The notes under the pieces are model-generated. The model did not search any database. It saw only the letters and a list, made by a program, of their open reading frames with translations, and was not told the DNA's origin. From Octopus sinensis (taxonomy: Eukaryota): DNA of 33,983 bases. Location of the stretch: contig NW_021831939.1 in the NCBI RefSeq assembly GCF_006345805.1, positions 1 to 33,983 on the forward strand, read 5' to 3'. How positions within the stretch are numbered: the first letter of the stretch is position 1; the number at the start of each line of letters is the position of its first letter. The position numbers and the translations under genes were made by a program. Shown in pieces: positions 2,385-32,502 of the stretch.

Positions 2385-2615
2385 CTTATACATAATGACC
2401 TCAAATAATAGAGTTGTTTATATGACATAAAATGCCTGGCATTTACCAGGAAAGGACTTATTCTTTTGCTTTTAGTAATTATTAATGTTAGGACTCTCTC
2501 TATGTGAATCTCCAATGACCCCAGTATTTGATATTATTTTTTTGCACTAACTAAAAATCATAAGCCAATTATTTTTTTTATTGTGTCACGGTCAGTATTT
2601 TTCACACAAGCGCTT

Positions 2616-2947
2616 TCACGGCCTTCCCGTTATTCGCTCTGGTTTCTCATTGATATGATTTAAAAAAATTTTATTAATAATATTAAGTAATTCCGCAATA
2701 CTGTTTGTGACTACACAAGTAAAGAATTTTTAATTTTACCAAATATGGGAAAAAACAAACCAAAGGCCCACCAAATTGTTTTCCAACGCTTAGTTGTAGA
2801 ATGTGTCATTTGCCAAACCTTGAACGGTAGGAAGAAAAATCCAGCAAGACAATCAGGAACAGTGGTCTTTGTTGTTAGAAAGTTCCAATCAGCTTCCCAA
2901 GTTTCTGTATAGGTATCTGAATTCATGCGAAAAACGTGTATTCCATT
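2616..2947 (-). CDS. Last two exons of a small hypothetical protein with hydrophobic, Trp-rich segments; 5' exons unresolved
   Basis: Exon 2947-2740 (NGIHVFRMNSDTYTETWEADWNF...WWAFGLFFPIF), a 29-nt GT-AG intron at 2739-2711, then an in-frame exon to TGA at 2618-2616. Head-to-head with WASHC3. Confidence 0.4.
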
Positions 2948-3232
2948 CTAATTTAATCCTTTCGACCTCATTATCGTACTACTCAAGTGTCCTTTCAGAA
3001 ACCCGATTTACTCTTTTATTTTAATGAAGAATTCTTTTTATTCTTTAAGTTCTTGATAACAAGTATATTTGTTTATAAAATGTGGGAAAGGTATCAACTC
3101 AAAAAAGCATGTCTCAAACTAAAGATTTTACATGATGCAAATTTAATTTTATAATTAATTATTTTGTTTTTTTATTAAATTCCCTAGTTAATTAATTCCA
3201 AAATAATAGAATATTTCAAATTAAGACAATCT

Positions 3233-3732
3233 ATGTGCTTTAATGAAATCGACAAAATATCAATCCAAATTAACAATTTTTTAATATCTAGCACGTCTTA
3301 TTGCAACAATCTAATGAAAAAGATCTCTAATGACTTACTAAAATTTGATTCCCGTCTTGGAAAGATAGATAGATCCCTTTCTATTCTGGAATCCAGGATT
3401 CAATCTATTCCCTGCCCGGAAGAACCCAAAATAACGGTAACCCAAGTTCCACAGCCAGCGGATACCGAAAAGGTAAAGTTGAGAATTGAAATATCTTAAA
3501 GGTAACAGAGGAAGAGACTCCCATTGTTGAAGGAATTTTAGTTAAAGACGATCCAAGATTTTCCCCATTTTTTAAGCGTTTACGATTGGTTAGTGACTAT
3601 GATAATGTCGTAGGGAATTCCATTTGCGGCAGTGAAACATATGATGGTTACTCAGGGAGTTGATCCTTCATTCTTAGAGTAATTGTTATTTTATTTTTTG
3701 TTAGTAAAGGGGATGAGTTGGCACCACAATGA
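3233..3732 (+). CDS. WASHC3: WASH complex subunit 3 (CCDC53)
   Basis: N-terminal INNFLISSTSYCNNL..RLGKIDRSLSILESRIQSIP and C-terminal VKDDPRFSPFFKRLRLGIPFAAVKHMMVTQGVDPSFLD match the CCDC53 motifs. Introns 3473-3501 (29 nt), 3589-3613 (25 nt) and 3679-3704 (26 nt) give a continuous frame. Confidence 0.9.
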
Positions 3733-3942
3733 TCTAATTTTTTTGATTTAATTTAAATTGTATTTTATTGATAAAAAATATTCTAATTTTCACATTTTGT
3801 GGTTTTGATAAACAATTGTTATTTTTTCTCCAAAAACATTAATATTTTTTATTTTGATCATATTAATTGTTTCATTATAATTAATATTTTTATATGTTTT
3901 TAGTATATTTCAAATTTTTGAAATAATTAAAAATCAAATTTA

Positions 3943-5260
3943 ATGTGTCCTATAACGTGTGTAGCGCCTATTAATATTGCTGTAATAAAATACTGTAAAA
4001 ACTGATACAAATTTAAATTCAGGGGGGAAACGAGACAGCGAACTAATTTTGCCAATAAATTCTTCTCTAAGCGTCACCCTCGACGTGGATCAGGTTCACA
4101 GTCTATTTTAGCGACACTAGTTATGCACGAAAACTACAGTTTACATAAAGCCAGAATTACCCGACAACATCTTGTTTCTGAATGGAAGGTTTAATTCAAT
4201 TTTTAATATAAATAGACAAACAGAACTACCAGAACGGGCCAGAAGAGTCATAGAAACTAGTCAGACTTGTCAGTAGAAATTTCTTTAAGTTCAGCGAGCG
4301 AGAAAAGATCAGTCAAATAATGCCAAACTCTGCATTGTTTCAGAAAACAATTTTCCCACTGCTGCTGGACTTGCCTCCTCCGCCTCGGGGTACGCATGTC
4401 TTGGTTAGTACCCCAAATCTCAACTACTAGCATGTGCAGTTGCAAAACTCTACCAAATAGAAATATCGCCAATTTTTGCTCGGTTATTTAATAAATGATG
4501 AATTTTAAGTATTGGGTCTGGAAGTGCATGTCGAAGTATGTACGGAGGATTTGTCGAGTGGGAAATGGGTGTTCGAGACGATGGGGAGGACTCTACGGCG
4601 GTCCCCTTTCCTTACAACTGGCCAGGACTTCGTGTTCTTGTTTTCGTGGCCAGTGATTCTCAAAAGTCTGTGAGTTCAACTGGAGGTATGCAAACGACAG
4701 TAAAAACGAGTCGTCTTTTGTCTTACCGAGTCACCAGCACTGCTTTTGAACGTTTGGAAGAAATTAAAGAAGCCATAAAACTGAGGGACTTTTCCAGTTT
4801 TGGGTATCTAATGATGAAAGTTGTTGATATAAAGTGATATTTCAGGATAGTAACGAAATGCATGCAACAATGATGGACTCTTATCCCCCAATTCGGTATA
4901 TATCTGACTCTGCTTTTTCTTTATTGTCATATATACATCGAATGAATGATTTGATGGGCCGGACGGTGGCTGCATATACATTCGATGCAGGATCAAATGC
5001 ATTTGTTTTTACAATGGAAGAGGATGTCGATTCGGTTTATGGATATCTTTCAAAAGTGGCCGGAGTTCCAGGTGGATTGCCGGTTGTTGGACTACCATTG
5101 CAAGTTTCAAATTCAATCAATGGCTTTGTGGATGTAGTCTCAAGTGATGTACATATTAAATATGTAATCAGCACGAGGGTGAAAATACCATTCTTTATTT
5201 TAGCCTGGAGATGGTCCTCGTGAGTCTACTGATCATTTAGGCATGCCTGAGAGTCATTAA
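3943..5260 (+). CDS. MVD: Diphosphomevalonate decarboxylase
   Basis: Motifs APINIAVIKYWGKRD, NNFPTAAGLASSASG, ARIGSGSACRSMYGGFVEW, SSTGGMQTTV, DSNEMHA, AYTFDAGSNA. Eight introns of 25-30 nt: 3995-4022, 4094-4120, 4189-4215, 4260-4289, 4404-4430, 4483-4509, 4820-4845, 5179-5203. Confidence 0.96.
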
Positions 5261-5391
5261 TTTAAAATCTTCTAATTCTGGTCTTAATTATTTTGGTTTT
5301 AATTCACAATTAATTATTTTATTTATTCCATTTAGGTTATTTTCTCTACAGATAGTAGATGTAATCACACCAACAGGGTTAAATTACACTA

Positions 5392-6472
5392 CAGTACGAC
5401 CCCGGTTTGGGGCAGACCCCATGGGTGGGGCACCCTCGGGTTTTGGGGCACCCCCGCTTTTAGGGGCAGTTTTTTGAAAACAGTAAATTTTTCATTCTAT
5501 TATTTATTTTTGATGACCCCGGTTTGGGGCACTTATTTAATTTATTTAATTACAAAATGTTAGTTTATTTATTAATTATTAATTAATACTATTATTTCAC
5601 GTGTTTATTTTGACTTTAGTATGGTTCGTAAAAAGAATTCAAAGATTAATTATGAAACAAAAATTAAAATCGCTAAAGATATAAAACATGGTCAATTTTC
5701 AGAAAGAGATCTTGCTAAAAAGTATAAAACGAGCAAAGGTATCTTTTTTAACTAATTATTAATTACAGGTACTATTACAGGTATTAAAACGAGCAAAGGT
5801 ATCTTTTTTAACTAATTATTAATTACAGGTCTTATATTTGAAAAAGAACAGCTTTCTGATTTGAATTTGAATAATGTCAATCTTAGACAAGTCATTACAG
5901 TTGTCGGGGAGGCATGGAAAATGATGTCAGAGACAACGATAATTAATTGCTGGCAGAAATAAATGAAAACAGATCAAAAATTTCGGATAATGTACAGTTG
6001 GACGAAGAATTAATAGATGACGTGATTTCAGATGTTATTTCAATGGATTCGACAGATATTATGAGGACAAAATTACTTATGATGGATATGAATCTAAAAA
6101 ATCATCAATTAAAGAAATCATAAACATCGTGAATTCTCTAGAAGAATATTTTTCAGTACATGTCCACAATTTTGAAATCTACTACGAATTTAGAAAAAAC
6201 CTATCAGGAGAACTGAAAAAAAACCATTCGGTGAGAAATTACTGATTACTTTTAATAGTATTTTTTGTTGGATTTATTAAAATTTTTAAATTTTATTAAG
6301 AAAGGACTATGTTAGAATTTTATTAATATTAATATTTTAATTTATAGTCTAAAATGCAATAAAAATCTATTGAGGAGAAAATAAAAGCAAAAATCTTTAC
6401 CCTCGCATTTTGGGGCACCCCCGCTTTTTGGGGACTATGATAAAAATGCTGCCCCAAACCGGGGTCGTACTG
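5392..6472 (+). mobile_element. Internally deleted Tigger/pogo (Tc1-mariner superfamily) element
   Basis: Perfect 24-bp TIRs CAGTACGACCCCGGTTTGGGGCAG with TA on both sides (5390-91, 6473-74). HTH-like N-terminus MVRKKNSKINYETKIKIAKDIKHGQFSERDLAKKYKTSKG from 5620 and C-terminal remnant AWKMMSETTIINCWQK; catalytic core missing. Confidence 0.92.
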
Positions 6473-6699
6473 TAGTAAGTTCTCCTAAGAGACGAAAACG
6501 CAAAATTTTTGATAAACTCTGGAAATGTCCGAATGTTTTATAGAAAAAGTTTTAATTTCAAGCAAAAAACTTCCTGCCACCAAGAGAAATATTTATTTAG
6601 TTTGGGTTATTTCTATTATAGAGTGTCTATTTTTATTTTTACGTGTTTACTATATACCAAAAAATATTTTATTAGTAACAAATCAGTTTAGTTGTTAAT

Positions 6700-8781
6700 T
6701 CATCCTAGCTTTTGATATTTCAGTTGTCGACTAATCAAATTTAAAAACAAGATAAGTAATCCTTGCGGGCAGACAGTAATGCAAAATATGTATTCCAGAG
6801 TTTGAGAAGAATCGAACCGAACAAAAAATACTAAAATCCAACACAATCCTGTCAATAATGAATTTCATCTTTACTACCTGATAAGAAAAATGCAGAAAAC
6901 AAAACAATATTCTTTAAACAATTCATTTTAGAACTTGCATTTTCTTCAATTTTAAGTTTGTAGAACAAAATAATAAACAGAACCATGTTTATCAGCAAAA
7001 TTGCTGCTGAAGGAATAAAAAGACTCAAGTAAAATGCCAACCCAGTCAAAAAACAACTTAAAAATAAACTTTTTGCTAAAAATACCTCTCATTTGGGTTA
7101 TATGAGTTTCGATTTGCTAGAAAAACCGTCAAGACAATAAATAAAGGTACTCCTGAAATAAAAATTAAATAAAACCCCAATTGCAGATAAAAGATTTGAG
7201 AATCAAATTAGAAGTTTCGCGTTTCACAATTTTAACAAATTTAAGAAAGTGAAAATAAGTTTCAGTTAACATCCACATAAACTGTGACAACAATCCATAA
7301 TGTAATACAGCACCAAAAACTGTACATTGATTTTGGGTTTTGGTGTGAACAAAATACATTCCTACTATAAAATCAAGGTCCACGATTAAAATTGAAATTT
7401 CTAAGTTTAATAAAATTAATTGAAATTTTGATTTTAGAAGAATTCTAAAAATATATTGAATATTTTACTGATATTCTAGGAAAAATATTATAATCGAGAT
7501 AATAATTGAAATGATGGAGGATATCAGTCCAATTAATGTAATTTGTGAGATTAATGATATTTTGTTTCCGTCAATTTTATACTTTTCCGGGTTCTATGTA
7601 TATTATTATTAATGGTATTTTAAAATACAAATATAACTGCGAAACTTGACAGATGGTTAAAACTGCACAAAATTTTTTTTTCCATTTCGAAAATAATCGT
7701 CTTTCCGCCAATTGTATCCCAACTTGTATCATTCGCGTTGTAAAAAGCACACTCATTTTGAAAAACTAAATATTTTCAAAGTGATAACTGGAATGATTTG
7801 TGACGATTGGGAAACTTATACTTATATTTTTGATAAAAATTGTCGATGAAATGGAGATGATATCAGAGTGTAAAGTTTGTTTTTTTCTGATGGGGAAGAT
7901 ATCGTCATTTTTCCATTTTATGATACGAACTAAATTGTGTTTTTTATTGCAAACTATTTTTAGAATTTGATTTATCAAAATTTAGAAATATTTTGACATT
8001 ATTTGAAGAATTGGTTTTGTCGTATATTGTTTCTGTGAATTTATCGGCATGGATATTTTTGTCGACAATTATTACATCTTGGATAATCAAACTTCGGTTT
8101 AATGGTTGAACAGTTGGTTTTTCAAAATGGATCTTATTCTAATCGGATTTAAGCTGTAATATCCAACTTTGATTTATTCCTTGACACCGTCATAATTTCT
8201 GAAATAAGCTCATTAATCTTGACAATTTCCTATATAAAAAATTCTATAAAACTTTTTTATCCTTTTTTCCTGGCGTGTTAAATATAAAATATACTTTTGT
8301 TTAGTTTGTTTATACCGTCTGATTTAGGCCGCTTGGCTAAATTTTAGTCAATAATTTATTGGGAAATTTACAATTATGAAATTTATTGGGAAACTTGAAT
8401 TTTTAATTGAATATTTATTATTTCCATGAAAACGGTTTATAATTCTACTAACTTTTTAATTTGTTGCTTGTTAATAAATTTGAACTTCCAGTATAATTTA
8501 TAATGCTATTAATTTCGGTTGTCATTTTTATATATGTAACTGAGCTGAAATCACTTTAAAATCAAATTTAGAAACAGACTGTTTATTTTTATTCTTTTTT
8601 CTGAATGTTTTTGAGAGATCATTCACAACTTGAACTAAAGTCATAAATATTTACATTTTTTCTTTATTTTAAGTTTATGGTGGTCGGTTTTTTGTTGAAA
8701 GGTGTCTAAATATTGATAGTACATTAAACCCGAGTCACTTAAACATGAAGTAATAATAAATAAATTAAGCAGTAGATTCAT
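6700..8781 (-). CDS. Adhesion GPCR (signal peptide, GAIN/GPS, 7TM), full-length copy; possibly pseudogenised in its 5' exons
   Basis: Start MNLLLNLFIITSCLSD; GPS ECAFYNANDTSWDTIGG...LCSFNHLSSFAVIF; TM3 CTVFGAVLHYGLLSQFMWMLTET; TM7 YIFCITVCPQGLLILFLNL; TGA at 6702-6700. Versus copy 2 it has 1-nt losses near 8123 and 8380 and a lost splice acceptor near 8425 (real or assembly error). Confidence 0.88.
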
Positions 8782-8879
8782 TTTGCAACGACAATATATT
8801 TTTTAATAAATATATGTGTGATTCGGGCGATATGAATAATTAGGATAGAAATTCCATAAAATTAGTGATAATAAATTTA

Positions 8880-10146
8880 TTATAAATTAACGTTTTTAGT
8901 TACTAATAACTAACTAATCTGTATAATTCTCCTCCTTTTTGAACCGTTGCACTGGATCTGCGTATTCTCATCCTTTAACACTTCATATGACACATGAGAC
9001 ACATCTTCCGGCAAATCTGGTGGATCTGTTGTTTCTCTAGCCAATTTTAGGAGGTGGTTGGTGGCCCTCGAAACTTGTTCCTCATGTTTTTCAATTTCCA
9101 CTCCATGTTTATGTTCAACAAGCATGGTCTCCAATGTCTTTTTAATCGTCAGCGATTGTATATACGATCTAGTGGAAGCATCCAACTTCAGTCTTTCCAT
9201 ATAAGACTTATAGAATTTAGAAACTATCCCGTCCCATGTGAGGACAATGGGATTATCGTTACCTTCGCACCGTGGATTTGAGATAATTCTCCAGCAAGAA
9301 GATCATATTTATGTAGTTTTTCTACTTCCACTTGCTTTAACATGGCGTGGGAAGTAATTCCGACTTCAATTAGAGTGATTTCGTTTTTCGTTTTATCAAG
9401 GACAAAGATATCTGGTCTATTGTTTTTTACATGAACATCTGTCTGCAAGGTGGTGTCCACTCTTATCTCTACTTTATGATTTGAGCTAACCGACTGGACT
9501 GTGTGTGACTTTAACCTTTTGGTTTTCTTGATTCCATATTGGCGGCAGAGATGCAAATAGATGCATCTTATAACTTCATTATGTCTTCTGGTATAATCAC
9601 TGTTCAGCATTTTGCTACATCTTGTAGCCATGTGATCAACAGATTTTTTAGCTTGATTACAATGATTGCACATTTCTCCGTTATCGTTGAAAAATATATT
9701 TTGATCCTGAATAATACAATACACTGCTTCTGATATCGGACTGTTGTTTCCATTCACTAGCCATTCCGTAGACATATTGATGTCGACATTCTGATCCTCA
9801 CAACATTTGAAAAGCACGGAATGCAACATCTTCGATTTAATAATCTTCATTAGATTTTTTGTTGATTCTCCTTGATTATGTTTATATTCAATTCTGAAGG
9901 ATCTTCAATATTGTATTTGAAGGTAAGAAATCTTGCGATAGTGGCCAGATGTGTTTTCTTTATTTTCAAGACCCGCAAGATTCCAGACTTTCTGAGACAC
10001 ATTGTAGACTTTCTTTCAAGATCAGTCAAAAATTGGTATAACATGCATTCACTTTTATGGACAATTGAATTAAGTCCTCTTCCAAATTTCTTCATTAATG
10101 AGTATCTTGTTTTCGTCTAATAATAGTGTTATTTCTTCATTTATCA
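8880..10146 (-). mobile_element. 5'-truncated non-LTR retrotransposon with restriction-like endonuclease (R4/Dong/NeSL-like), frameshifted
   Basis: GRGLNSI, CCHC finger CNHCNQAKKSVDHMATRC, YTRRHNEV, and PD-(D/E)xK RLE motif NRPDIFVLDK..LIEVGIT..EKLHKYDLLA. Split over three ORFs. Confidence 0.9.
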
Positions 10147-10370
10147 CAACGGTTCTCACCCTGGGTCGAAAAATGGGTTAGAAATGGGCTGGCTCGCAGG
10201 ATTGAGAGACAACGAAGGATGCAAAAACGGCCATTTTGTCAAAATTGATATAAAATATCAAAATTAAATGTTCCATTGTCAATTTGATGAAAAGAGTGTC
10301 AAAATTGAACACCGCATTGTCAAAATCGATATAGAAATGTCAAAATTGAACTGAACTGGTATAGTCAAAA
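10147..10370. mobile_element. Probable hAT terminus with TGTCAAAATTGA subterminal repeats (also at 19421-19650)
   Basis: CAACGGTTCTCACCC resembles the hAT end CAGCGGTTCTCAACC at 33825. About 7 copies of (T)GTCAAAATTGA follow. It abuts the truncated 5' end of the retroelement. Confidence 0.5.
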
Positions 10371-12389
10371 GGATGAGAAATACAAATATTAATTCTTAGT
10401 TAAAATCTACAATATAAAACGAGCAAATAGAAAGAACTATGGGATTAAATTGCATTCAAATATATTTTAAACGTGTTTATTTTAATTTTTGTGACATCAT
10501 CGTCTCAGGCCGTTCATGTAGGCAGGATCGAACCTTTCAGAAGGATCTCCCTCGCTTGAATCGGGGATCACGAGGATAATAATAATTAACTGGCTTACCC
10601 GTGTTTGGTCTTTAAATAAATAAATAAAAATTTTAATTTTTGTATGTATTGATTTTTTTTAATTGGTCGTAAAATTTTTATATACCAAAAATGGGAAATT
10701 TGCGATGATTTATTATATGTACATACTTTTCAATTTTTGTTAAACAACCAAAAATGCAAAACCTCAATTGCTCGTCGAATTCTATATCTCGTAAAAATTG
10801 GGTCGGTTTCATAATATAGCAAGTCTTAGAGGTTTTACTATACATTTTGATTAATCGAAAATATCCGATCAACAAGTTTTTATCAAGTTTCGGGAACTTT
10901 AACTTTTTGATTGTTTTTGTAGATAAATTTTTAGTTTTGAATTGTTCCATAATTGACTCAACACTCACTAAAATTAGCTGTTTTTCCGCAAATGTTCAAT
11001 TTAAACAAGAAGGAAAATTTATTGACAATTATTTGGCATGATAATAAGTTGTTGTCGTCCTTATAACGCAATATTTGCATTTTTTGATAGTTTTCTTGTA
11101 TATCATTCAGTCAATCACAACCGGGCATGGTAAAACATAGTTTTACTGTTGTCATTTTCAAATTTTCACTAAAATTGGAAATTTTTTTAAAATTTGCAAA
11201 TTTAACGGAGTCTAGTGTTCATGACTTAATAAGATTATATTTTGAATTACAATAAACGTTTTTAGGCACCTTATAATGAAAAAGTGATGGTGCTGATAAA
11301 TGAGTCTTGCTTAAAAAGGATCCGAAACAACAACCACTTAGTTCATATTTTGTTTTTATAAAAACTTAAACTATTTAAAATTGATTGCTGTATTAATTTA
11401 TTCCTTTCGGTTTGAATCATTCCTTAGCTTTTTAACTGCAATCTTTTGTTAACCATCACGAATCTGATCTTCACTTTAGATTTTAGGCAAAAAATAAAAA
11501 TTACACCCCTTAAATAGAAAAAAGTTAAAAAATTACTTTATAACTGACAAACAAATGGGAATGTTACCTACAATGTAATCTATTACAGAAAAGTAAAATG
11601 TTGATGTGAAAATTTTGTTTACAAATTTTTATTGGCTTTGCTATTCGCGAGGCTAGCCGAGCGTCTCATGAGACTATTAGGTAATTTATAACTTGCTTGT
11701 TTGCATTTGCGTGTTTTAAAAAAAATTCTTGTTTATCACATTTAATAGTTTTATTCGAACAAATTAAGAAACTCACACTTTTTATTGTTTTCGCACACAT
11801 AAAACATAATGGAAAGCCACTTGACACTAATATAATTATTAATCATATTATAAATCAATTATATCCATTATTATCTTAAATCAAATTAAAAAAAGAACAG
11901 CAAAATAATTAGCACAAATGCGGTTATTCGTAATTAATAAACGAAATTCATTAACGAGAGAGAGCTCACTGTGCGTGTGAAACCACAAAAACATAAAATA
12001 GATATTGAATTAATGACATTATTTTTGTAGATTACTCACCTTTTTGGCATAAATCAGATTTTTGAGAATAAACTGAAATTTTAGATAAACTAAATTTTTA
12101 CGTATTGATGCGTTTTGAGTTTTTTTGATAGCCAGAAAATACACGACCGTTATACTAAAATATCTTAAAACAGAAGCCGAATAACCAACCTGATCTTTGA
12201 TTAAACTAAACATTGTTTGTCACGTGCCATTTAACAAACATCAAATTTGATTGATGGCAATCATGCCTAAAATAATCTATCGATTCAGTCACAAAATCTA
12301 AACAAAACCGTGAAAGAAAATAAGCAAAAAAGCATTTAAATCCAGAAAAATAATTAACTTGGCATTATTTGGATTAGATGACGTATATG

Positions 12390-13056
12390 TTAAAGATGTT
12401 TCTGGTGTTTCGGGTTGTGGCCACGTTTCTTGTCAACAAACACAAATTCATCAACACGACTGCTGTCATGCTCCACCAAATAATCTTCCGTATCACTGCC
12501 AGAGTACACAAAATTCGACGAAGAATTAGAAGACCCGGAATTGACAGGATTAGACGTAGGGGCATTACAAATCAACGAAGGGTCAGGAACTACTTTTTGA
12601 CGACAAAAAACTTTCCGGATTCCCTCCAAACGAGCATCTTTGAGTTCCGCATTTATCTCGACAGTTCCTGATTTTAGCATTTCGGCTGAAATTTAGTAAA
12701 ATAATCAACTTAGAGAATTTTCAGCTTTAAGTTTTTCTCTGAAGGTTGCTATTTTGCAATCAAACTTGAGTACCATTCCATTCAAAAAATAAATGTAGTC
12801 ACGTGCTTTTTGAAGGATTTTGGCACGTGGAATCTTAGATTGAGTCGGATTAAGAATTTTACTCGTTCTCTGGATGAGGGAATGATATCTTTCAAGTCTT
12901 GAAAACAATTTTTATATTTTTTCTGCGCTTTCTCTCAAGGGCATTGTGAATAGCACGACGAGACTGAAAGTTTATATATTGAATGATTTCATCATTTTTA
13001 TTGACATCATCGGTGGACCTTCCTGAATTCAGAGAATGTAAATGATTGAGTATCAT
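12390..13056 (-). CDS. MAX: Max-like bHLH-ZIP, copy 1; frameshifted as assembled (T5 vs T6 near 12909)
   Basis: RRAIHNALERKRRKNIK..LKDIIP..PRAKILQKARDYI matches the Max bHLH (HNALERKRR). Two small introns. Start codon uncertain. Confidence 0.75.
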
Positions 13057-13532
13057 ACAACTATAAGATGATTTCAAGTTTTAAAGTAAATAATTATCAA
13101 GGATCGATTAAAGCATGCAAACACGCATATACCTACGTTTGCTTGTTATGAAATTTCTTTTATTATTTTTTAAAACGTTTTAATAAAAATTATTCATAAA
13201 TTATAATTACTATTAATCAAAAATTAATTTTACAGGATTTGGTTTTAAATCAAAAAGTTTTAATAAATATTTAATTGCAGCAGAGGATAAGATGGAATGG
13301 CAATTCCCAAGCAAGTAATCCACAAATAATCAATTTCATCAGCAGTTGCCAGATATTAATGATTTTGTCTTAGTAAATAAATTCTTTAAATTTGAATTCA
13401 ACAAAAACTAAAAATGGCTACATCATTAAAATTGACGAATCCAGAATTACACAAACATTGTAATTGTCTAAAACAAAAATAAACATATGGTTTATTTAAA
13501 TGTATAGAAAATGTAATCAAAAAATTTTTACA

Positions 13533-15533
13533 TCATTTTCCCACCCTGCCTTTCACTTTGCGTTTACGGTAATCTTTTTTCTTCAAAATCTTGTCCTTTT
13601 TGGGCACTGCGTTTAACATCTCGTCAAACTAAAACATTAATAAAAATCGCAAACTTCCTCAGCGGTTTTGGTCATGTCCTGGAAATCACTTTCTAATGAA
13701 TCACTGCAATCGTCGCTCAATGAAAAATCGGAAGAATCCGCCTCGACCTTCTGCTCTCCAACGAGCATATCAAAATCACTATCTTCCACAGCTTCGGTTT
13801 TAATATCCGTTTTAACACAATAAGAACACCCTCCCGACGAGTCTACTCCAATCATGCGAAAAAAACTATAAAAATAATCATTTTTGTTTCACTGGTGTAA
13901 ATATCGTTCATCCAAAGGAATCGATGATTGATGACTATTTATAAACTGAACACTGTTCACAGGTAAGGCACGGATGCCTACACAATGACGAATTTTCTTC
14001 TGTGACATTATAACGCGACCTTCCTCTTCTACAAAAATATTTGACAAAAAACTCATTGGACGAGGCTTTTTGAAAACAAAACGGTCAAGAAATCTAATTG
14101 AACTGAAATCTTGTAATGGATGTCCTTGATAGGAAATAGATTCCCGCTATTAAATATAAAAAAAAGGAATACTTCGGTCAATGTTGTCGCAAAATATGAA
14201 ATTGTGGGGTGAACGTGCGAAGAAAGTAGTTCCAACTCATTTCTACAAACACAGAGAAAGCCCAAAGAAGCATCAACGCCACAAAAACGTGGATTTCGTT
14301 CTGTGGGATTGAAACGGTCCTCATTCTCTGAAGTGCCAGTAGTTTCGAAAAGAATCACGTGTATCTTTGATGTTATTTCAGAAATCATGATCAAAGATGC
14401 TGCCACAAAGGCAGGATTGTGATGTTGAAGACAAACTTGAAGCAAACGTTTAATAAATGCCTAAATATTGTTAAAATTAATAAAATAACCAAAATCCTAT
14501 TCATATCCTTGTCACCAGCCAACGCCTTATATAGCAAAGTAAGAAACATTGCAGGCTTTGAACAGTCAAATAGACGCACATCAGCAAGACGAGTGTAAAG
14601 CGCAGAAAAAAAGCGATCAGTCACAGCTCTAAATTATAAAACCACAAATGTTCACTCAATCGATATTGTAGATATGACATGAAGAATTTGAAGAACTCTT
14701 ATAGAAGCAGAGAAAGAAAGAGAGTGAGAAAGCAAGTAGAGAGTGTCAATATTTTCATCAAACAGTGAATAATGTTCTCAATAATAAACAAATATAAACT
14801 TACTCTCTGCATAAGGAATAGCTCGATATATTGCATCAAGGAGTACAGACATTGTCTTTGAATGTACAGTGTCATTTGGAATGAGAGTTTTGAAGTAAGA
14901 AAGGTATATTCCAATCAACAACCCTGCCAGACTAGATCCTGCATCGTCAGACGTAAAGATAAACTGAGACAAGCAACAAATAGCATAAAATCTAATAAAT
15001 TCAATAAAATATTTACTGAGTTCGACTCGAAACATTTGGGCGGAACAGCACCATTTCTAACTGCTTTCCAATTACTTGATTACAATGAGGCATTCTCCGA
15101 ACCAATGATTGAATATAAAAGAGAGCAGTCGATGCCAAATCCTTATTCTGATCCCCCAATTTATTAACCAACAACTCGATGGGTTTCTTGCAAAATTAAA
15201 GAAAATAAAAACATGATTTTGTAATGAGCGACAAATGGCCAAACGAAATGTAAATTGAATGGATTTTTTCCTGATTGAGGGTATACTGTCTTCCATACTA
15301 GTCTTGAGAAGGTCACATAATTTGGTCAGATACAATATGAGGCGGTCCTCAAACCATAAACACGTCAAATCAATTACAGATAGTTCATGTTTAAATGATT
15401 TAACAGCCTAATTAAATTTATTTTTAAATACTGTTACTTGATCAATGCTGATTAATTTCTTTCTCGGAAGTAAATATTTTGAAAAAAGTTCAACCAAACC
15501 TTCCAAGGCATGCACAGATTCTCCGAGAATCAC
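13533..15533 (-). CDS. CEBPZ: CEBPZ/Noc1/Mak21 3' portion lacking its own N-terminus; 3' partner of the junction chimera
   Basis: VNKLGDQNKDLAS, FRPNVSSRTQFYAICCLSQ, DRFFSALY, HVHPTISYFA, HPLQDFSSIRFLDRFVFKKP. Away from the junction the only indel versus the full copy is intronic (~14160). Confidence 0.9.
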
Positions 15534-17077
15534 TTTAAGAAAGTGAAAATAAGTTTCAGTTAACATCCACATAAACTGTGACAACAATCCATAATGTAAT
15601 ACAACACCAAAAACTGTACATTGATTTTGGGTTTTGGTGTGAATAAAATACATTCCTACTATAAAATCAAGGTCCACGATTAAAATTGAAATTTCTAAGT
15701 TTAATAAAATTAATTGAAATTTTGATTTTAGAAGAATTCTAAAAATATATTGAATATTTTACTGATATTCTAGAAAAAAATTATAATCGAGATAATAATT
15801 GAAATGATGGAGGATATCAGTCCAATTAATGTAATTTGTGAGATTAATGATATTTTCTTTCCGTTAATTTTATACTTTTCCGGGTTCTATGTATATTATT
15901 ATTAATGGTATTTTCAAATACAAATATAACTGCGAAACTTGACAGATGGTTAAAACTGCACAAAATTTTTTTTTCCATTTCGAAAATAATCGTCTTTCCG
16001 CCAATTGTATCCCAACTTGTATCATTCGCGTTGTAAAAAGCACATTCATTTTGAAAAACTAAATATTTTCAAAGTGATAACTGGAATGATTTGTGACGAT
16101 TGGGAAACTTATACTTATTTTTTTGATAAAAATTGTCGATGAAATGGAGATGATATCAGAGTGTAAAGTTTGTTTTTTTCTGATGGGGAAGATATCGTCA
16201 TTTTTCCATTTTATGATACGAACTAAATTGTGTTTTTTATTGCAAACTATTTTTAGAATTTGATTTATCAAAATTTAGAAATATTTTGACATTATTTGAA
16301 GAATTGGTTTTGTCGTATATTGTTTCTGTGAATTTATCGGCATGGATATTTTTGTCGACAATTATTACATCTTGGATAATCAAACTTCGGTTTAATGGTT
16401 GAACAGTTGGTTTTTCCAAAATGGATCTTATTCTAATCGGATTTAAGCTGTAATATCCAACTTTGATTTATTCCTTGACACCGTCATAATTTCTGAGATA
16501 AGCTCATTAATCTTGACAATTTCCTATATAAAAAATTCTATAAAACTTTTTTATCCTTTTTTCCTAGCGTATTAAATATAAAATATACTTTTGTTTAGTT
16601 TGTTTATACCGTCTGATTTAGGCCGCTTGGCTAAATTTTAGTCAATAATTTATTGGGAAATTTACAATTATGAATATTTATTGGGAAACTTGAATTTTTA
16701 ATTGAATATTTATTTCTTCCTATTGAAAACGGTTTATAATTCTACTAACTTTTTAATTTGTTGCTTGTTAATAAACTTGAACTTCCAGTATAATTTATAA
16801 TGCTATTAATTTCGGTTGTCATTTTTATATATGTAACTGAGCTGAAATCACTTTAAAATCAAATTTAGAAAAGACTGCTTATTTTTATTCTTTTTTCTGA
16901 ATGTTTTTGAGAGATCATTCACAACTTGAACTAAAGTCATAAATATTTACATTTTTTCTTTATTTTAAGTTTATGGTGGTCGGTTTTTTGTTGAAAGGTG
17001 TCTAAATATTGATAGTACATTAAACCCGAGTCACTTAAACATGAAGTAATAATAAATAAATTAAGCAGTAGATTCAT
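15534..17077 (-). CDS. Adhesion GPCR 5' portion (signal peptide, GAIN/GPS, TM1-3), copy 2; 5' partner of the chimera
   Basis: ATG at 17077. Exons trace in frame through the GPS motif. An A7 run at 15774-15780 is one base shorter than copy 1, giving a TAG just after TM1 as assembled. Confidence 0.85.
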
Positions 17078-17175
17078 TTTGCAACGACAATATATTTTTT
17101 AATAAATATATGTGTGATTCGGGCGATATGAATAATTAGGATAGAAATTCCATAAAATTAGTGATAATAAATTTA

Positions 17176-19420
17176 TTATAAATTAACGTTTTTAGTTACT
17201 AATAACTAACTAATCTGTATAATTCTCCTCCTTTTTGAACCGTTGCACTGGATCTGCGTATTCTCATCCTTTAACACTTCATATGACACATGAGACACAT
17301 CTTCCAGCAAATCTGGTGGATCTGTTGTTTCTCTAGCCAATTTTAGGAGGTGGTTGGTGGCCCTCGAAACTTGTTCCTCATGTTTTTCAATTTCCACTCC
17401 ATGTTTATGTTCAAAAAGCATGCTCCAATGTCTTTTTAATCGTCAGCGATTGTATATACGATCTAGTGGAAGCATCCAACTTCAGTCTTTCCATATAAGA
17501 CTTATAGAATTTAGAAACTATTCCGTCCCATGTGAGGACAATGGGGATTATCGTTACCTTCGCACCGTGGATTTGAGATAATTCTCCAGCAAGAAGATCA
17601 TATTTATGTAGTTTTTCTACTTCCACTTGCTTTAACATGGCGTGAGAAGTAATTCCGACTTCTATTAGAGTGATTTCGTTTTTCGTTTTATCAAGGACAA
17701 AGATATCTGGTCTATTGTTTTTTACATGAACATCTGTCTGCAAGGTGGTGTCCACTCTTATCTCCATTTTATGATTTGAGCTAACCGACTGGACTGTGTG
17801 TGACTTTAACCTTTTGGTTTTCCTGATTTCATATTGGCGGCAGAGATGCAAATGGATGCATCTTATAACTTCATTATGTCTTCTGGTATAATCACTGTTC
17901 AGCATTCTGCTACATCTTGTAGCCATGTGATCAACAGATTTTTAGCTTGATTACAATGATTGCACATTCCTCCGTTATCGTTGAAAAATATATTTCGATC
18001 CTGAATAATACAATACATTGCTTCTGATCTCGGACTGTTGTTTCCATTCACTAGCCATTCCGTAGACATATTGATGTCAACATTCTGATCCTCACAACAT
18101 TTGAAAAGTACGGAATGCAACATCTTCGATTTAATAATCTTCATTGGATTCTTTTGTTGATTCTCCTTGATTATGTTTATATTCAATTCTGAAGGATCTT
18201 CAATATTGTATTTGAAGGTAAGAAATCTTGCGATAGTGGCCATATGTGTTTTCTTTATTTTCAAGACCCGCAAGATTCCAGACTTTCTGAGACACATTGT
18301 AGACTTTCTTTCAAGATCAGTCAAAAATTGGTATAAAATGCATTCACTTTTATGGACAATTGAATTAAGTCTTCAGCCTTCTTAGCTGCAGATTTGGCCT
18401 CCAGGGCACATGAAGTTAAGTGAGAAGCAGAAAAGGTGTCGCAGCAGGTTGCGTCCCAAACGAGGCCTTTTCCGCCTTCGAAGGGGAAAAGGGTCATCCC
18501 GTCAGGACGTTTCCCGTCGCCGCGGTCAAGGCCCGGTGGCTCGAGGACCGAAGGAAATCCCGCCGAGTCGAGGGCCCTCCGTATGATGTCGTTCATAGCA
18601 GAGTGCCTCGGAAAACGTCCGGCACTCCTCTTGCACGATAAAGGGTGCAGACCGAAAGGGTCAACAGTGCAGCCACAGCGGCACGTGTGCGGGACACATT
18701 GCCTTAGTCCGAGTCGCAGAGAGACTCCCATCCTTACCGCTTCATCGTCAAGGAGAGTGCCAGATGGGGCATTCGGGAATGCACAAAGCCAAGCTCCGCT
18801 AGCCGGGTATGCTGCCGACAGAAGGCAAGCGCGGCGGTGCTGGTTGGACGACTCGAGCAGCAGATTGAAAGTTTGCTTGCATCTAATTCGATCCCAGGCT
18901 CGTTGAGACATTCGATCTTCCGGAAAGTCAAGGCCTTGTTCTCTCCAGACTTCGCTGAAATGAGCAACATTTGTGTCCAAGGAAAATTCAGAAAAGGAGC
19001 GTAGAATTTGTGCCCTGGAGGCCAAATCTGCAGCTAAGAAGGCTGAAGATTTAAAGCTTTTAAAATATTCTGCCCTCTCGGAGAAGTTTTCCGTGGTGCC
19101 GATCGCGGCTGAGACGTCGGGTGCTCTCGGTCCAAAAACTGAAAAGTTCCTTCGCAAGCTCGGAGCCAAAATCTCAATGCGCACCCATGATCCTCGGGAG
19201 GCGAACTGGCTAATGCAACGGCTCTCGATTGCCATTATCCGGGGAAACAGTTTGGCAATCCGCCAAGCTACATATCCACCATAAACATAATTCTATCTTT
19301 TCATTGATTATTGTTATTTATTTGTAAGTAAAAATAAAAATTGAATTAAGTCCTCTTCCAAATTCCTTCATTAATGAGTATCTTGTTCTCGTCTAATAAT
19401 AGTGTTATTTCTTCATCTAT
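17176..19420 (-). mobile_element. Second copy of the R4/Dong/NeSL-like retroelement fragment, interrupted by a CRE-like insertion
   Basis: Same protein motifs as 8880-10146 (ORFs 17206-18324); resumes at 19339. Confidence 0.9.
18372..19338 (+). mobile_element. CRE-like non-LTR retrotransposon 3' fragment with inverted 5' part and 14-bp TSD
   Basis: TSD AATTGAATTAAGTC at 18358-18371 and 19339-19352, single in copy 1 (~10062-10075). 18372-19008 encodes SGAWL..LRLG..CRCG..HPLSC..RH..RPDGMTL..WDAT on minus; 19009-19284 encodes ..PIAAETSGALG..QRLSIAIIRGN on plus, followed by an A-rich tail. Confidence 0.92.
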
Positions 19421-20226
19421 CACAACGGTTCTCACCCTGGGTCGAAAAATGGGTTAGAAATGGGCTGGCTCGCAGGATTGAAAGACAACGAAGGGTGCAA
19501 AAAGGGCCAATTTTGTCAAAATTGATATAAAAAATATCAAAATTAAATGTTCCATTGTCAAATTTGATGAAAAGAGTGTCAAAATTGAACACCGCATTGT
19601 CAAAATCGATATAAAAATGTCAAAATTGAACTGAACTGGTATAGTCAAAAGGATGAAGAGAGTACAAATATTAATTATAGTTAAAATCTACAATATAAAA
19701 CGAGCAAATAGAAAAAACTCTGGGATTAAATTGCATTCAAATATATTTTAAACGTGTTTATTTTAATTTTTGTGACATCATCGTCTCAGGCCGTTCATGT
19801 GGGCAGGATCGAACCTTTCAGAAGGATCTCCCTCGCTTGAATCGGGGAAATTTGCGATGATTTATTATACGTATATACTTTTCAATTTTTGTTAAACAAC
19901 CAAAAATGCAAAACCTCAATTGCTCGTCGAATTCTATATCTCGTAAAAATTGGGTCGGTTTCATAATATAGCAAGTCTTAGAGGTTTTGCTATACATTTT
20001 GATTAAATCGAAAATATCCGATCAACAAGTTTTTATCAAGTTGCGGGAACTTTAACTTTTTGATTGTTTTTGTAGATAAATTTTTAGTTTTGAATTGTTC
20101 CATAATTGACTCAACACTCACTAAAATTAACTGTTTTCCCGCAAATGTTCAATTTAAACAAGAAGGAAAATTTATTGACAATTATTTGGCATGATAATAA
20201 GTTGTTGTCGTCCTTATAACGCAATA

Positions 20227-22040
20227 CAGTCGGACCTCGGTTTGAACCACTTGATGGCTCATAAACCGAGGTTGTATCATAAACCGAGGTTCGCTAATAA
20301 TCCTAATTAACAGTACTTTAAGTAAAAAATAGTTCACAAGAAACAGATAGAAACAGTTCATAAGTTATACTTTTTGGAAATAATGCGTAATCTTTTTTCC
20401 AAAACGATTTTTATCCCGTAAATTAATCATTATTTTTTTCCTTAGGGCGTAGAAATCATTTGATAATTCTGGAGAAAGTTTGCATATATTTTCCTCCATA
20501 TTATTAATAAGAGTCAGTGGATCTATGATTTCTGTTGATTTAGGCCCATTATAAAAATTTATTTTGCTTTCAAGCAATTCTTCGACAAAGACTTCGTTCA
20601 CCATTTCTGTCACGTCCGTATGAATCTTCGACTTGATATTTATTGTTTCCTCCCATCTACACTCAAAAATTTTTTTCCAACAATTTTGAATTTGATTTGA
20701 AGTTACATTGGCCCAGGCTTCAGAAATTAGTTGCATCACATTCCGTAAATTGAGACTTTTGATTGCTTCCAAAAAATTGCTTCTATTTTCACAAATGCAT
20801 ACGAATTCGATAAGTAAATTACTGTAATTTGTCTTCAGTGCTTTAATTATGCCCATATCAAATGGCTGAACTAACGATGTAGTGTTTTAGGTAAATATAA
20901 AAATTCAATGTTTGAATAATCGGATAGTCTATGAGAACTAGCATTATCCAACAACATGAATATTTTTCGGTTTTCAGAAAGCATTCTGGTATTTAATTAA
21001 AAAACCCAGCTTTTAAAAATTTCAGTTGTCATCCACGAATTTTTAGAAAAAGAGTACATGACGTTAAAAACATCAGGATTGAATTGTTTTAAGCACCGAG
21101 GGTTTCGATATTTGCAGATAATTAAAGGCTTCAGTTTCTCTCCAAGATAACTGCAGCATAGAAGCAAACTAACCCTTTCCTTGTACTGCTTAAAACCAAA
21201 CAAATTTTCACCACATTGTACAAATGACTTAGTTGGTGTATTTTTGAAATAAAGTGCAGTTTCGTCGCAATTAAATACATTTTCTTTACCATAATAAACA
21301 ACTTTTGTATCTAATTCTTGGAAAAAATGAAGGAGCATGGATGTATCTGCGGAACCCTTTTCACCACACAATGTTTTGTACTGTAAATTATGTAGTTTCT
21401 TGAATCTTTGAAGCACCATTAGACAATTTGAAATTATTCAATGATAATTTTGAAGCGACCATCGACCCAATTTTCTTAATGGTCGGTCCAATTAAGGGCA
21501 TTTTTTAAGTCTCAATTTGTGAAAAATTTCCAAAACTTTAAGATCGAGATTTTTAAGCTTTTCAGAATCACTAGTTTGCTCGGATAAATCAGAATAAATA
21601 GTTCCATTATCAAGAAAAGGAAAATCTTTTTTATACGTGAAATTGTAGCCCTGCTAACTTTGAAAATTTCCGCTATTCTGCGCTCTGAAAGGTGGTTCCG
21701 TTTAATATTGGGCTATTTCGAGTTTTTTTCGTGATCAATTTTCATTTTAAGCATCTAGAAAACATAGAACAGTGGAAAATACTTCAACAAAGATAACAAC
21801 GTGACAAGAAAAAAATTCTTTAAAATAAACGATAAAATATATAAAATAAAAATAATATATTACAAAATATTAAGTTTATAGCAATTTTTAGATGGCTCAT
21901 AACGAGGTCTATTTTTAATTGATTTTTACAAACCCCTTAGGAAAAAAGCAGTTTCAAAAAACGTGGCTCAAAAATAGAGTTTGTATCATAAAGCGAGTAT
22001 GGATCATACCCGAGGTCTGGCTCATAACGAGGTCCGATTG
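20227..22040 (-). mobile_element. Tigger/pogo element with frameshifted transposase
   Basis: Imperfect 23-bp TIRs (CAGTCGGACCTCGGTTTGAACCA / CAATCGGACCTCGTTATGAGCCA), TA TSD, empty TA site at 11072-11073 in copy 1. Motifs LCGEKGS, FNCDETALYF, KERVSLLLC, SWMT, MGIIKALK. Confidence 0.95.
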
Positions 22041-22636
22041 TATTTGCATTTTTTGATAGTTTTCTTGTATATCATTCAGTCGAATCACAACCGGGCATGG
22101 TAAAACATAGTTTTGCTGTTGTCATTTTCAAATTTTCACTAAAATTGGAAATTTTTTTTAAAATTTGCAAATTTAACGGAGTCTAGTGTTCATGACTTAA
22201 TAAGATTATATTTTGAATTACAATAAACGTTTTTAGGCACCTTATAATGAAAAAGTGATGATGCTGATAAATGAGTCTTGCTTAAAAAGGATCCGAAACA
22301 ACAACCACTTAGTTCATATTTTGTTTTTATAAAAACTTAAACTATTTAAAATTGATTGCTGTATTAATTTATTCCTTTCGGTTTGAATCATTCCTTAGCT
22401 TTTTAACTGCAATCTTTTGTTAACCATCACGAATCTGATCTTTACTTTAGGGTTTTCTTTGGCACAATAAATTTTTTTCTACCTCGACCATCTTTAGCAT
22501 TTCCCGAGAAGTGATTCAAAATTTCTCTTCTCTAAAACTAACTAAGAAAAACAATCTTTTTCTTATATATAACAGAAAGCAATTCACTTCTACGCCGATA
22601 AAACACACATGCCATGAAAAGTAGAGAAATCACATA

Positions 22637-24124
22637 CAGTAAAACCTCTGGTGCTCGCCATTTTCGGGACCGAAGAAAAAATGGCGAGGAATAGAATTTG
22701 GCGAGCAATGGAAATAATCAATAAATTTTTTGACTTTGAAATTTTGAAAACATCTCGATTTTCGATACTTTCCGATCATATTCATGATTAATAAAATCAT
22801 CTTTATCCACCGAATCCAAGATTTTCAAGATATTTACCATTTGATCATAATTATCAATTTCAACAGTTGGTCTTTCGAGTTGATTTTCACATTCGATCCA
22901 TTTTGAATGTCCGAAAAATTTGTAATTGTTTTGGTCTTTACTTTTTCCAGGCAAAATATGTCAAAAGAAGACCGTCTTTTAAGGTTAATTTTTTATGATT
23001 TTCTTTTTAAGGTTAATTTTTTATGAGCTTCCAGTGGATTTTCTCCATTTTCAACTTTTTCTAACATAAACTCAAATTTAAGTTTATTAAAATGTCCTTT
23101 GAAGGATCTAATGATTCCTTGATCCATTGGTTGTAGAATTGTTGTAGTCTTCGAAGGTAGGTAAACTTCAATTGACTTTAAATCAGCGTAAAGTTTATGG
23201 GATGGGCATCGATCCACAGCTAAAAGAATTTTTCGTTTTTTTAGATGCCTATCCCATGTAAAAAGCCATTTGTTAAAAATTTTATTTGTCATCCATGCTT
23301 TTGGTGAATGACAGTAAGGATTTTATGTCCATATCGAACCTTCTGACAAACACTTTTTGAAGGGATAGATTTGTAAAAAATCCCAGTTTCATCAGCGTTA
23401 TAAATGTTTTCAGCATTATATTGTTGAATCTTTGCAGAGATCAAAGAAGTAAATGCATCAATTTCTTGCTTCTGATCAACTGCAGTAGATCCTGATTCTC
23501 CATGTAAAGTACTCAATGTTAGGTTGTTCCATATCTTGAACTCACTTAGCCATCCATCGCTGGCTTTAAACTCTTTAATTCCATAAATATTTGCAATGTT
23601 CTTTGCTTTCAACAAAATTGAATTATCGTCCAGAAACCCCCCTCTAAGCTCAATGCATTACATCTAAGTTAATATTTCGGTGTCAATAACAGAATAAGTT
23701 GAGTTAGATAATCTCTTCTTATTGGAGAAAATAGGATCAGTAGACATTATTTTCTCTTTTCCAAATCTTAAATCGTTCAAAGCCCTTCGAGATATTTTTT
23801 TCTTCAAAACAAAAGAAAAAATGTAAGCTATAAGGTCCATCGTGAGACTTTTGTTCTCCTCCATGCACGCAATAATGCGACGTTTTTCATTAAAAGACAA
23901 TCCTGTGCACTTACGCATGTTGAATTTAGCGTGGTTGAAATATTTTATATAAAAAATAGTTTAACCAAAAAAAATATTTTTAAAAATTAATGGCGAGATT
24001 TAGAAAATGGCGAGCAATAGAATATTTATCAAAATTTACTAGAAATTTTTAATTTTTTGAAAAATATGTGGCGAGCAATAGAGGTGGCGAGTAACAGAGG
24101 TGGCGAGCACCAGAGGTTTTACTG
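22637..24124 (-). mobile_element. Tigger/pogo element (second family), deleted and frameshifted transposase
   Basis: Perfect 24-bp TIRs CAGTAAAACCTCTGGTGCTCGCCA with TA flanks. Motifs FKASDGWL, LHGESGS, YNADETGIFYK, QPMDQGII. Confidence 0.95.
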
Positions 24125-25043
24125 TAGTTAATTATTTTAGGCAAAAAATAAAAATTACACCCTTTAAATAGAAAAAAGTTAAAAAATTACTTTATAACTG
24201 ACAAACAAATGGGAATGTTACCTACAATGTAATCTATTACAGAAAAGTAAAATGTTGGTGTGAAAATTTTGTTTACAAATTTTTATTGGCTTTGCTATTC
24301 GCGAGGCTAGCCGAGCGTCTCATGAGAATATTAGGTAATTTATAACTTGCTTGTTTGCATTTGCGTTTTTTAACAAAAAAATTCTTGTTTATCACATTTA
24401 ATAGTTTTATTCGAACAAATTAAGAAACTCACACTTTTTATTGTTTGCGCACACATAAAACATAATGGAAAGCCACTTGACACTAATATAATTATTAATC
24501 ATATTAAAATCAATTATATCCATTATTATCTTAAATCAAATTAAAAAAAGAACAGCAAAATAATTAGCACAAATGCGGTTATTCGTAATTAATAAACGAA
24601 ATTCATTAACGAGAGAGAGCTCACTGTGCGTGTGAAACCACAAAAACATAAAATAGATATTGAATTAATGACATTATTTTGTACATTACTCACCTTTTTG
24701 GAATAAATCAGATTTTTGAGAATAAACTGAAATTTTAGATAAACTAAATTTTACGTATTGATGCGTTTTGAGTTTTTTTGATAGCCAGAAAATACACGAC
24801 CGTTATACTAAAATATCTTAAAACAGAAGCCGAATAACCAACCTGATCTTTGATTAAACTAAACATTGTTTTGCCACGTGCCATTTAACAAACATCAAAT
24901 TTGATTGATGGCAATCATGCCTAAAATAATCTATCGATTCAGTCACAAAATCTAAACAAAACCGTGAAGGAAAATAAGCAAAAAAGCATTTAAATCCAGA
25001 AAAATAATTAACTTGGCATTATTTGGATTAGATGACGTATATG

Positions 25044-25711
25044 TTAAAAATGTTTCGGGTGTTTCGGGTTGTGGCCACGTTTCTTGTCAACAAACACAAA
25101 TTCATCAACACGACTGCTGTCATGCTCCACCAAATAATCTTCCGTATCACTGCCAGAGTACACAAAATTCGACGAAGAATTAGAAGACCCGGAATTGACA
25201 GGATTAGACGTAGGGGCATTACAAATCAACGAAGGGTCAGGAACTACTTTTTGACGACAAAAAACTTTCCGGATTCCCTCCAAACGAGCATCTTTGAGTT
25301 CCGCATTTATCTCGACAGTTCCTGATTTTAGCATTTCGGCTGAAATTTAGTAAAATAATCAACTTAGAGAATTTTCAGCTTTAAGTTTTTCTCTGAAGGT
25401 TGCTATTTTGCAATCAAACTTGAGTACCATTCCATTCAAAAAATAAATGTAGTCACGTGCTTTTTGAAGGATTTTGGCACGTGGAATCTTAGATTGAGTC
25501 GGATTAAGAATTTTACTCGTTCTCTGGATGAGGGAATGATATCTTTCAAGTCTTGAAAACAATTTTTTATATTTTTTCTGCGCTTTCTCTCAAGGGCATT
25601 GTGAATAGCACGACGAGACTGAAAGTTTATATATTGAATGATTTCATCATTTTTATTGACATCATCGGTGGACCTTCCTGAATTCAGAGAATGTAAATGA
25701 TTAAGTATCAT
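25044..25711 (-). CDS. MAX: Max-like bHLH-ZIP transcription factor, copy 2 (intact frame)
   Basis: QSRRAIHNALERKRRKNIKNCFQDLKDIIPSSRER / IPRAKILQKARDYIYFL joined by a 29-nt intron, then a second small intron before the C-terminal exon. Start codon uncertain. Confidence 0.82.
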
Positions 25712-26188
25712 ACAACTATAAGATGATTTCAAGTTTTAAAATAAATAATTATCAAGGGATCGATTAAAGCATGCAAACACGCATATACCTACGTTTGCTT
25801 GTTATGAAATTTCTTTTATTATTTTTTAAAACGTTTTAATAAAAATTATTCATAAATTATAATTACTATTAATCAAAAATTAATTTTACAGGATTTGGTT
25901 TTAAATCAAAAAGTTTTAATAAATATTTAATTGCAGCAGAGGATAAGATGGAATGGCAATTCCCAAGCAAGTAATCCACAAATAATCAATTTCATCAGCA
26001 GTTGCCAGATATTAATGATTTTGTCTTAGTAAATAAATTCTTCAAATTTGAATTCAACAAAAACTAAAAATGGCTACATCATTAAAATTGACGAATCCAG
26101 AATTACACAAACATTGTAATTGTCTAAAACAAAAATAAACATATGGTTTATTTAAATGTATAGAAAATGTAATCAAAAGATTTTTACA

Positions 26189-32500: not shown

Positions 32501-32502
32501 TT

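Follow-up and report, generated by a model that had tools for sequence, protein, structure and literature searches.

An adhesion-GPCR reading frame continued into CEBPZ/Noc1 across the join of a tandem duplication seen in one contig

The locus and its duplication

The window, i.e. the whole stretch of 33,983 bases that was analysed, constitutes one entire contig (C8410) in a 2.7-Gb assembly. Self-BLAST of the window revealed a direct tandem duplication in which a first copy (copy A or copy 1; 7240-15533) is followed by a second one (copy B or copy 2; 15534-28190) that is 98-99% alike and that, according to self-BLAST and to a comparison with other contigs, contains three additional transposon insertions. 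The arrangement is head to tail, with a unit of about 8.3 kb, and there is no N anywhere in the window and hence no assembly gap between the copies. In agreement with the sequence-only reading of this DNA, which had placed both breakpoints in coding exons of the same strand, they fall inside exons of two minus-strand genes whose parental forms are present on either side. These parents are a full seven-transmembrane (7TM) receptor gene with an approximate 3' end, which is broken as assembled (6700-8781, minus strand), and a CEBPZ/Noc1 gene that shows an open frame without a resolved start codon (26189-28599, minus strand). Two other contigs of the assembly, C8695 and C9055, contain both genes once each, unfused and in the same order as in the window. 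The neighbouring genes encode CCDC53, of the WASH complex (3188-3630), and mevalonate diphosphate decarboxylase (MVD; 4000-5223). A frame (12390-12692 / 25044-25346) and a bHLH gene (25359-25735) that is presumably Max-like lie within the duplication and are doubled whole.

The window is gene-dense, its 21 modelled introns measure 20-35 nt (mean 26.7 nt), and the identity of the MVD exon does not exceed 60% to any sequence among the matches listed (120 of 218). Taken together, the very short introns, the gene density and the low MVD identity point to a compact-genome, short-intron organism that was sequenced along with a larger host. These features would suit a dicyemid, the excerpted genome report of Dicyema japonicum giving introns of 38 bp on average, a heterozygosity of 1.24% and 49% of repeats (PMC6736024), and a myxozoan-type parasite (PMC13644364) may be an alternative. 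The window contig, C8695 and several others resemble several haplotypes of the co-sequenced short-intron organism within the large host assembly, and gene counts taken from such haplotype contigs would come out inflated.

The public runs that cover the locus (X1, X3 and X5) were all compared as contigs, which drop rare alleles. They belong to six listed runs, among which no RNA run appeared; four of the six were compared, and the fourth, X2, yielded no records. Run X1, with a depth of 55-75, possibly derives from the sample behind the assembly, and X5, from a separate study, is a relative that is about 92% alike. The difference between copies A and B is 0.98%, and those between A and C8695 and between B and C8695 are 0.65% and 0.85%, respectively; the divergence between the copies ranges from 0.77 to 1.45%, and that to other contigs from 0.47 to 1.59%. 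To judge from these values, the two copies appear to differ at the allele level, like population haplotypes. The left flank and copy A are nearer to C8695 than copy B and the right flank are (24/6133 versus 39/5789 in the flanks, p 0.04). Within the 40 of 315 rows of the comparison that were listed, the copies share an allele that is absent from C8695, C9055, X1 and X5 at no fewer than four sites (at least 14143, 16997, 17006 and 17027), and copy A groups with X1, C8695 and C9055 versus copy B and X5 at a minimum of three (at least 15604, 16497 and 16776). Transitions exceed transversions 2-4 to 1, several alleles of the window recur in runs X1, X3 and X5, and the transposons private to one copy carry terminal repeats and target duplications, which together argue that both copies hold real alleles.

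Regarding these mobile elements, a fragment of a non-LTR retrotransposon private to copy 2 (18375-19338) shows a target-site duplication and an internal inversion, and with its 46-bp inverted match (18365-18410 / 19009-19054) and its open frames on opposite strands it resembles a twin-primed insertion. The insertions at 20227-22040, 22451-24133 and 5392-6472 are missing from C8695 and C9055. The first two of them encode DDE_1 (pogo/Tigger-like) transposases, terminal inverted repeats and TA duplications were found at the first and the third, and 28 matches to the initial 300 nt of 20227-22040 occur in the assembly. Conversely, at the place matching 16853/16854, on an intron-exon boundary of the receptor gene, C8695 and C9055 contain an insertion of 431 nt and its target duplication of 12 nt, which are missing from the window and from run X1.

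The chimeric reading frame and its two deletions

Read on the minus strand, receptor copy 2 passes into CEBPZ copy 1, and the frame is stop-free across 15533/15534 as ..FHFLK-VILG-ESVHAL.., as the sequence-only reading had observed. The resulting chimera would consist of an adhesion-GPCR signal peptide, a GPS motif and TM1-3, followed by the last 582 codons of CEBPZ/Noc1. Its exon model, hand-built and predicted from sequence alone, has 22 exons and 21 GT-AG introns. As assembled, the first stop appears at codon 338, just past TM1, and limits the product to 337 amino acids, and the introduction of a single N at 15780 opens the model for 994 amino acids, in which GPS HL/S cleavage would occur at about residue 292 and residue 409 is the last one before the join.

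The receptor-derived 5' part (15534-17077, minus strand; 13 predicted exons with introns of 20-35 nt in the hand-built model) starts with a predicted signal peptide of about 15 residues (17033-17077, minus strand, cleavage site inferred; hydropathy 2.36 over residues 3-14) and contains ahead of TM1 a GPS motif with its HL/S site (15925-16047, minus strand) that matches PF01825 above the cut-off (E 2.8e-7), so that the ATG, the signal peptide (as a prediction) and the GPS motif attributed to this part by the sequence-only reading are retained. TM1 (15774-15830, minus strand, ends approximate) shows a hydropathy of 2.64. The stretch coding for TM2-TM3 (15534-15738, minus strand) matches 7tm_2 (PF00002, E 1.2e-7), with a hydropathy of just 1.37 for TM3, and the seven-helix domain is incomplete, since it ends past TM3 and only profile positions 32-105 of 250 are matched. 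Comparison with paralogues shows that the receptor breakpoint lies at the conserved end of TM3. Such paralogous adhesion-type receptors were observed in C9495, C8153, C9567, C11947 and C8294 and are 47-50% identical across TM2-TM3.

The CEBPZ/Noc1 3' part (13533-15533, minus strand) comprises 582 codons, from ESVH to the stop, of which 2 encode residues different from those of the parent copy in the window. It includes the CBF/Mak21 domain (14188-14615, minus strand; PF03914, E 6.7e-16), an identity with which 30 of 30 atlas hits agree. The breakpoint-containing exon aligns to residues 266-341 of yeast Mak21 (E 1.1e-9) and is cut near residue 319; it gave one hit in a PDB sequence search, in which two other CEBPZ exons gave none. 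About 130 N-terminal codons of the parent CEBPZ model are thus lost, including some 53 residues of the conserved Noc1 core. The predicted topology and the domain order follow from the sequence, and they would place the CEBPZ region in the cytosol after three membrane passes, as previously proposed.

Bases 17002-17025 carry an in-frame TAA in C8695, C9055, X1 and X5, and these bases are therefore most likely a 24-nt first intron (GT..AG, minus strand), which explains the TAA at codon 24 of the other haplotypes better than a null allele. A base missing after 16871 in copy 2 was considered as a second frameshift and discarded, because it falls in predicted intron 3 (16851-16875), and an extra A at 14158 is also intronic in the predicted exon model.

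The continuity of the frame depends on two other deletions. The residues VILG are encoded by CEBPZ-derived DNA (junction-proximal 10 nt, 15524-15533, minus strand) that differs from all three unfused CEBPZ copies in a substitution at 15531 and in an adjoining 2-nt deletion at 15523/15524, in disagreement with the earlier view that the CEBPZ part had no coding indel. This deletion, 10 nt from the join, sets the frame of the fusion, which in its absence would be out of frame and meet a stop 27 codons past the join. The probability that a join is in frame is about 1 in 3, which means that chance could account for the frame by itself. Two changes within 10 nt have a chance of 5e-4 at the local rate, and they look templated in post hoc comparisons: an inverted repeat of 6 bp reaches 7 bp through them, an effect that 15 of 546 random edits also have, and a match to 8 of the 10 junction nucleotides lies in the receptor gene 35 nt beyond its break (chance 0.019). 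As both possible local templates explain the same base, at least one of them is a coincidence. The two changes in 10 nt also fit an unpolished contig end or one noisy read.

The second deletion affects a run of seven A (15774-15780, plus strand), where a 1-nt loss causes a frameshift and generates a TAG (15771-15773). The sequence-only reading had noted this stop after TM1 and ascribed it to an A8 shortened by one base. The stop was indeed found; the missing base, in contrast, is the T of an A6-T-A stretch, which is how C8695, C9055 and run X1 read, and A8 was consequently rejected as the original allele. Its suspicion of a sequence error is reasonable, because private exonic 1-nt deletions occur in the receptor gene of 4 out of 4 assembled copies (five common to C8695 and C9055, two in copy 1 and one in copy 2) and run X1 lacks them. 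The X1 contig differs from the copy 2 receptor by just four gap letters, one of them restoring the frame; receptor copy 1 is broken by its two exonic 1-nt deletions and by a lost splice acceptor, and a GC-richer stretch (2830-5317) shows no indels among three copies. The A7 deletion is thus probably a consensus error in AT-rich DNA. A full-length chimera requires that the junction deletion is real and, at the same time, that the deletion at 15780 is an error.

If both the join and the A7 run were real, the product could be a one-helix receptor isoform composed of ectodomain, GPS and TM1 that tunes the full receptor like Drosophila Cirl-1TM does. The as-assembled frame of 337 residues ends exactly past TM1, and one-helix isoforms are described, in the part of the preprint consulted, as binding and modulating 7TM receptors (bioRxiv 10.1101/2023.01.11.521585). 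Nonetheless, such a product has no cytosolic tail, its stop is followed by 10 introns, the allele is private and the assembly shows a broken 7TM partner on this contig, so that we regard this isoform as barely credible.

Search for the join and origin of the fusion

The junction is present at one place only in the assembly, in one contig. Independent sequence spanning the join, whose absence the sequence-only reading had named among its refuting conditions, was looked for in the contigs of X1, X3 and X5, which drop rare alleles, and none of the 24 records listed (a further 29 being unlisted) bridges it, an outcome that goes against the chimeric gene within the limits of such contigs. The X1 and X5 records leave the window at 15523 into the parental CEBPZ and enter it at 15534 from the parental receptor, an entry also shown by the X3 records. 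The depths of the bins at the join, as predicted from parental records and as seen, were 52.17 and 52.2 for X1, 62.23 and 62.3 for X5, and 1.93 and 1.92 for X3; since the parental records by themselves add up to the depths seen, there is no room for an unlisted bridging record, although records can be lost to the filter applied in the comparison. The word share of X1 (0.78) matches that predicted from its major allele alone (0.784), which indicates that alleles private to either copy are likewise missing from the X1 contigs and that the missing bridge means "not dominant" rather than "false". These data show that the join lies outside the dominant genotype of the runs examined, although misassembly is not thereby proven, and that the fusion is not a species-level gene.

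One explanation is an end-to-end misjoin, in the assembly or in a chimeric read, of two haplotypes from a single locus (1-15533 and 15534-33983), which would give a false heterotype duplication and a false chimeric gain. Besides the absence of a bridge in the three covering runs, this artefact would account for copies that differ like haplotypes and each resemble their own flank, and for the changes concentrated in the last 10 nt ahead of the join. The assembly did retain redundant haplotype contigs, as the neighbouring MVD stretch is found in three copies and a receptor paralogue on four contigs, three of them collinear haplotypes, and false chimeric gains are an error class described in the excerpts of a published survey (PMC9516828). 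According to the same excerpts, gaps between the duplicated pair are a main mark of false duplications (PMC9516828), and such a gap is absent here. Moreover, by estimate rather than computation, it would seldom happen that a random chimeric read unites, in direct order, two molecules that both stem from one 10-kb region. The end of C9055, 215 nt from the CEBPZ breakpoint, may reflect the artefact or, just as well, a genuine fork in the read graph. We consider a misjoin a serious possibility, albeit of somewhat less than even probability.

The reading that we favour, by a small measure of confidence above even, is that the join is a real but rare tandem-duplication breakpoint and the fusion its functionless by-product. 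The contig is gap-free and the join offers no shared sequence to an overlap assembler, so that a molecule across the join would be the simplest source of the contig, and we take a junction-spanning molecule to be probably real. Further points in favour of a real event are the genuine alleles and transposon insertions of both copies, the sites at which the copies share an allele against the four other sequences, the seemingly templated junction changes and the transposon-bounded tandem duplication in C8153. The absence of shared sequence at the exact join, together with the 2-nt deletion and the substitution within 10 nt, suggests that a non-homologous, error-prone template switch or end-join would have created the duplication, and the open frame would have arisen by chance. 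The join would be carried by a minority genotype of the short-intron organism co-sequenced with the larger host, and the intact CEBPZ copy alongside would keep the carrier viable. A point against a rare real duplication is that the copies do not appear to be sisters: they differ from one another more than either differs from C8695, the sites that group copy A with X1, C8695 and C9055 separate them, and each resembles its own flank, which is what a haplotype join would give.

Other direct duplications were found in the assembly. Contig C8153 (4110-12896) holds a tandem duplication of some 4 kb with a 0.9-kb insert that ends in a transposon-like end at the join. The duplicated stretch of C8153 is single copy in C11947, and all 46 substitutions lie in its second copy. 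The start of C10167 (1-5197) recurs 17 kb on (17024-22534), with 99.8% identity over 2.7 kb and then 95%. Direct duplications of at least 2 kb were thus observed in 2 of 6 other small contigs (C8153 and C10167), and in none of the 10-kb starts of six contigs with neighbouring numbers, a background that agrees with both a rare real duplication and an artefact.

With respect to the fate of a real fusion, the as-assembled allele, if transcribed from the receptor promoter, would yield a 337-residue single-pass stub, and the 10 introns that follow its stop make the transcript a likely target of decay. If the deletion at 15780 is an error, a three-pass protein of 994 residues would instead expose the cut Noc1 core to the cytosol, away from Noc2 and pre-rRNA. 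GPS cleavage is extracellular and frees only the ectodomain, so the cytosolic Noc1 remnant would have no known release. A decayed transcript or an inert protein next to an intact CEBPZ are the likely outcomes.

The alternative of a working new gene, which takes up the candidate chimeric gene of the sequence-only reading, holds that the 994-residue, autoproteolysed three-pass protein tethers most of CEBPZ/Noc1 at the cytosolic face of the membrane and was selected in one lineage. One unknown base at 15780 leaves 994 codons without a stop across 21 GT-AG introns, and the chimera retains its own promoter region, ATG, predicted signal peptide and GPS. The CEBPZ part is nearly identical to its parent, although such identity is expected from youth alone, and 1-nt deletions of the assembly are common in the AT-rich receptor gene, where the A7 run may well be an error. 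Nevertheless, a working gene needs a real join, a real junction deletion and a false deletion at 15780, and the join is absent from all other copies and from the related organism X5. In addition, the loss of some 53 residues of the conserved core concerns a protein that, according to the portion of the structural report available, pairs with Noc2 to form a helical-repeat heterodimer surrounding a pre-rRNA helix (PMC10191850), and TM3, deprived of TM4-7, has a low hydrophobicity. The modelled exons of the chimera gave no indication of purifying selection, as their comparison with X1 yielded 10 nonsynonymous and 10 synonymous differences, too few for testing. With a join seen in one contig, no bridge and a frame that hangs on the junction deletion, the proposal of a new chimeric gene is unsupported, and a working gene appears very improbable; equally improbable would be an expressed, membrane-tethered ribosome-biogenesis factor of one lineage with a GPCR ectodomain, three helices and a cytosolic CEBPZ/Noc1.

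Comparison with known systems

A search of open-licence papers did not retrieve any published fusion of an adhesion GPCR with CEBPZ, and neither this search nor a weak search for longer proteins with the chimeric exon, in which not one of 181 candidates gave a score, returned a membrane-tethered CEBPZ/Noc1 architecture. The partner pair is new and the kind of event is already known; the existence, frame and expression of the fusion are unproven. Under both leading readings it is ordinary, the fusion being either private to one duplication join or spurious. It is useful as a warning, since whoever accepts the open frame has to believe one deletion and doubt another in a set of redundant haplotype contigs. 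If the join, the frame and the expression were true, the fusion would be a young gene of unusual design, and it would be worth testing whether a cut receptor re-routes a nucleolar protein.

When compared with its parental families, the chimera resembles adhesion GPCRs (PF01825 and PF00002) in its predicted signal peptide, ectodomain, GPS HL/S site and TM1-3, but it lacks TM4-7 and would therefore have no G-protein-coupling bundle. It also differs from Cirl-1TM, a product of intron retention that possesses a tail of its own. With respect to CEBPZ/Noc1/Mak21 (PF03914; yeast Mak21, PDB 8E5T chain 5), it keeps the CBF domain and the C-terminal acidic and basic tail, but it would be membrane-bound and without the N-terminal codons.

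At the level of the event, TFG is, as the name of the fusion implies, the 5' partner in TFG-GPR128, whereas the receptor is the 5' part of the window chimera. TFG-GPR128 (ADGRG7) is likewise a germline copy-gain polymorphism, found in healthy people, by which an adhesion GPCR gene becomes fused with a neighbour unrelated to it, and transcripts of it are seen, with no established new function in the portions of the reports cited here (PMC5772337, PMC6774566). The false chimeric gains described in the survey excerpts share with the window adjacent allele-like copies, joined exons of different genes and, as far as the contigs examined show, the lack of independent support, but in the window no assembly gap separates the copies (PMC9516828). 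Finally, fusions at the joins of tandem duplications are common as a class, and the chimeras of Drosophila tandem duplications, which in the excerpted study amount to about 10% of the gene-capturing duplications (78 in D. yakuba and 38 in D. simulans), were identified by means of read pairs from population samples, whereas the present one was found in one contig and is frameshifted as assembled; as in the window, their breakpoints lie in coding exons of parallel genes and the parents are kept on either side (PMC4069613).
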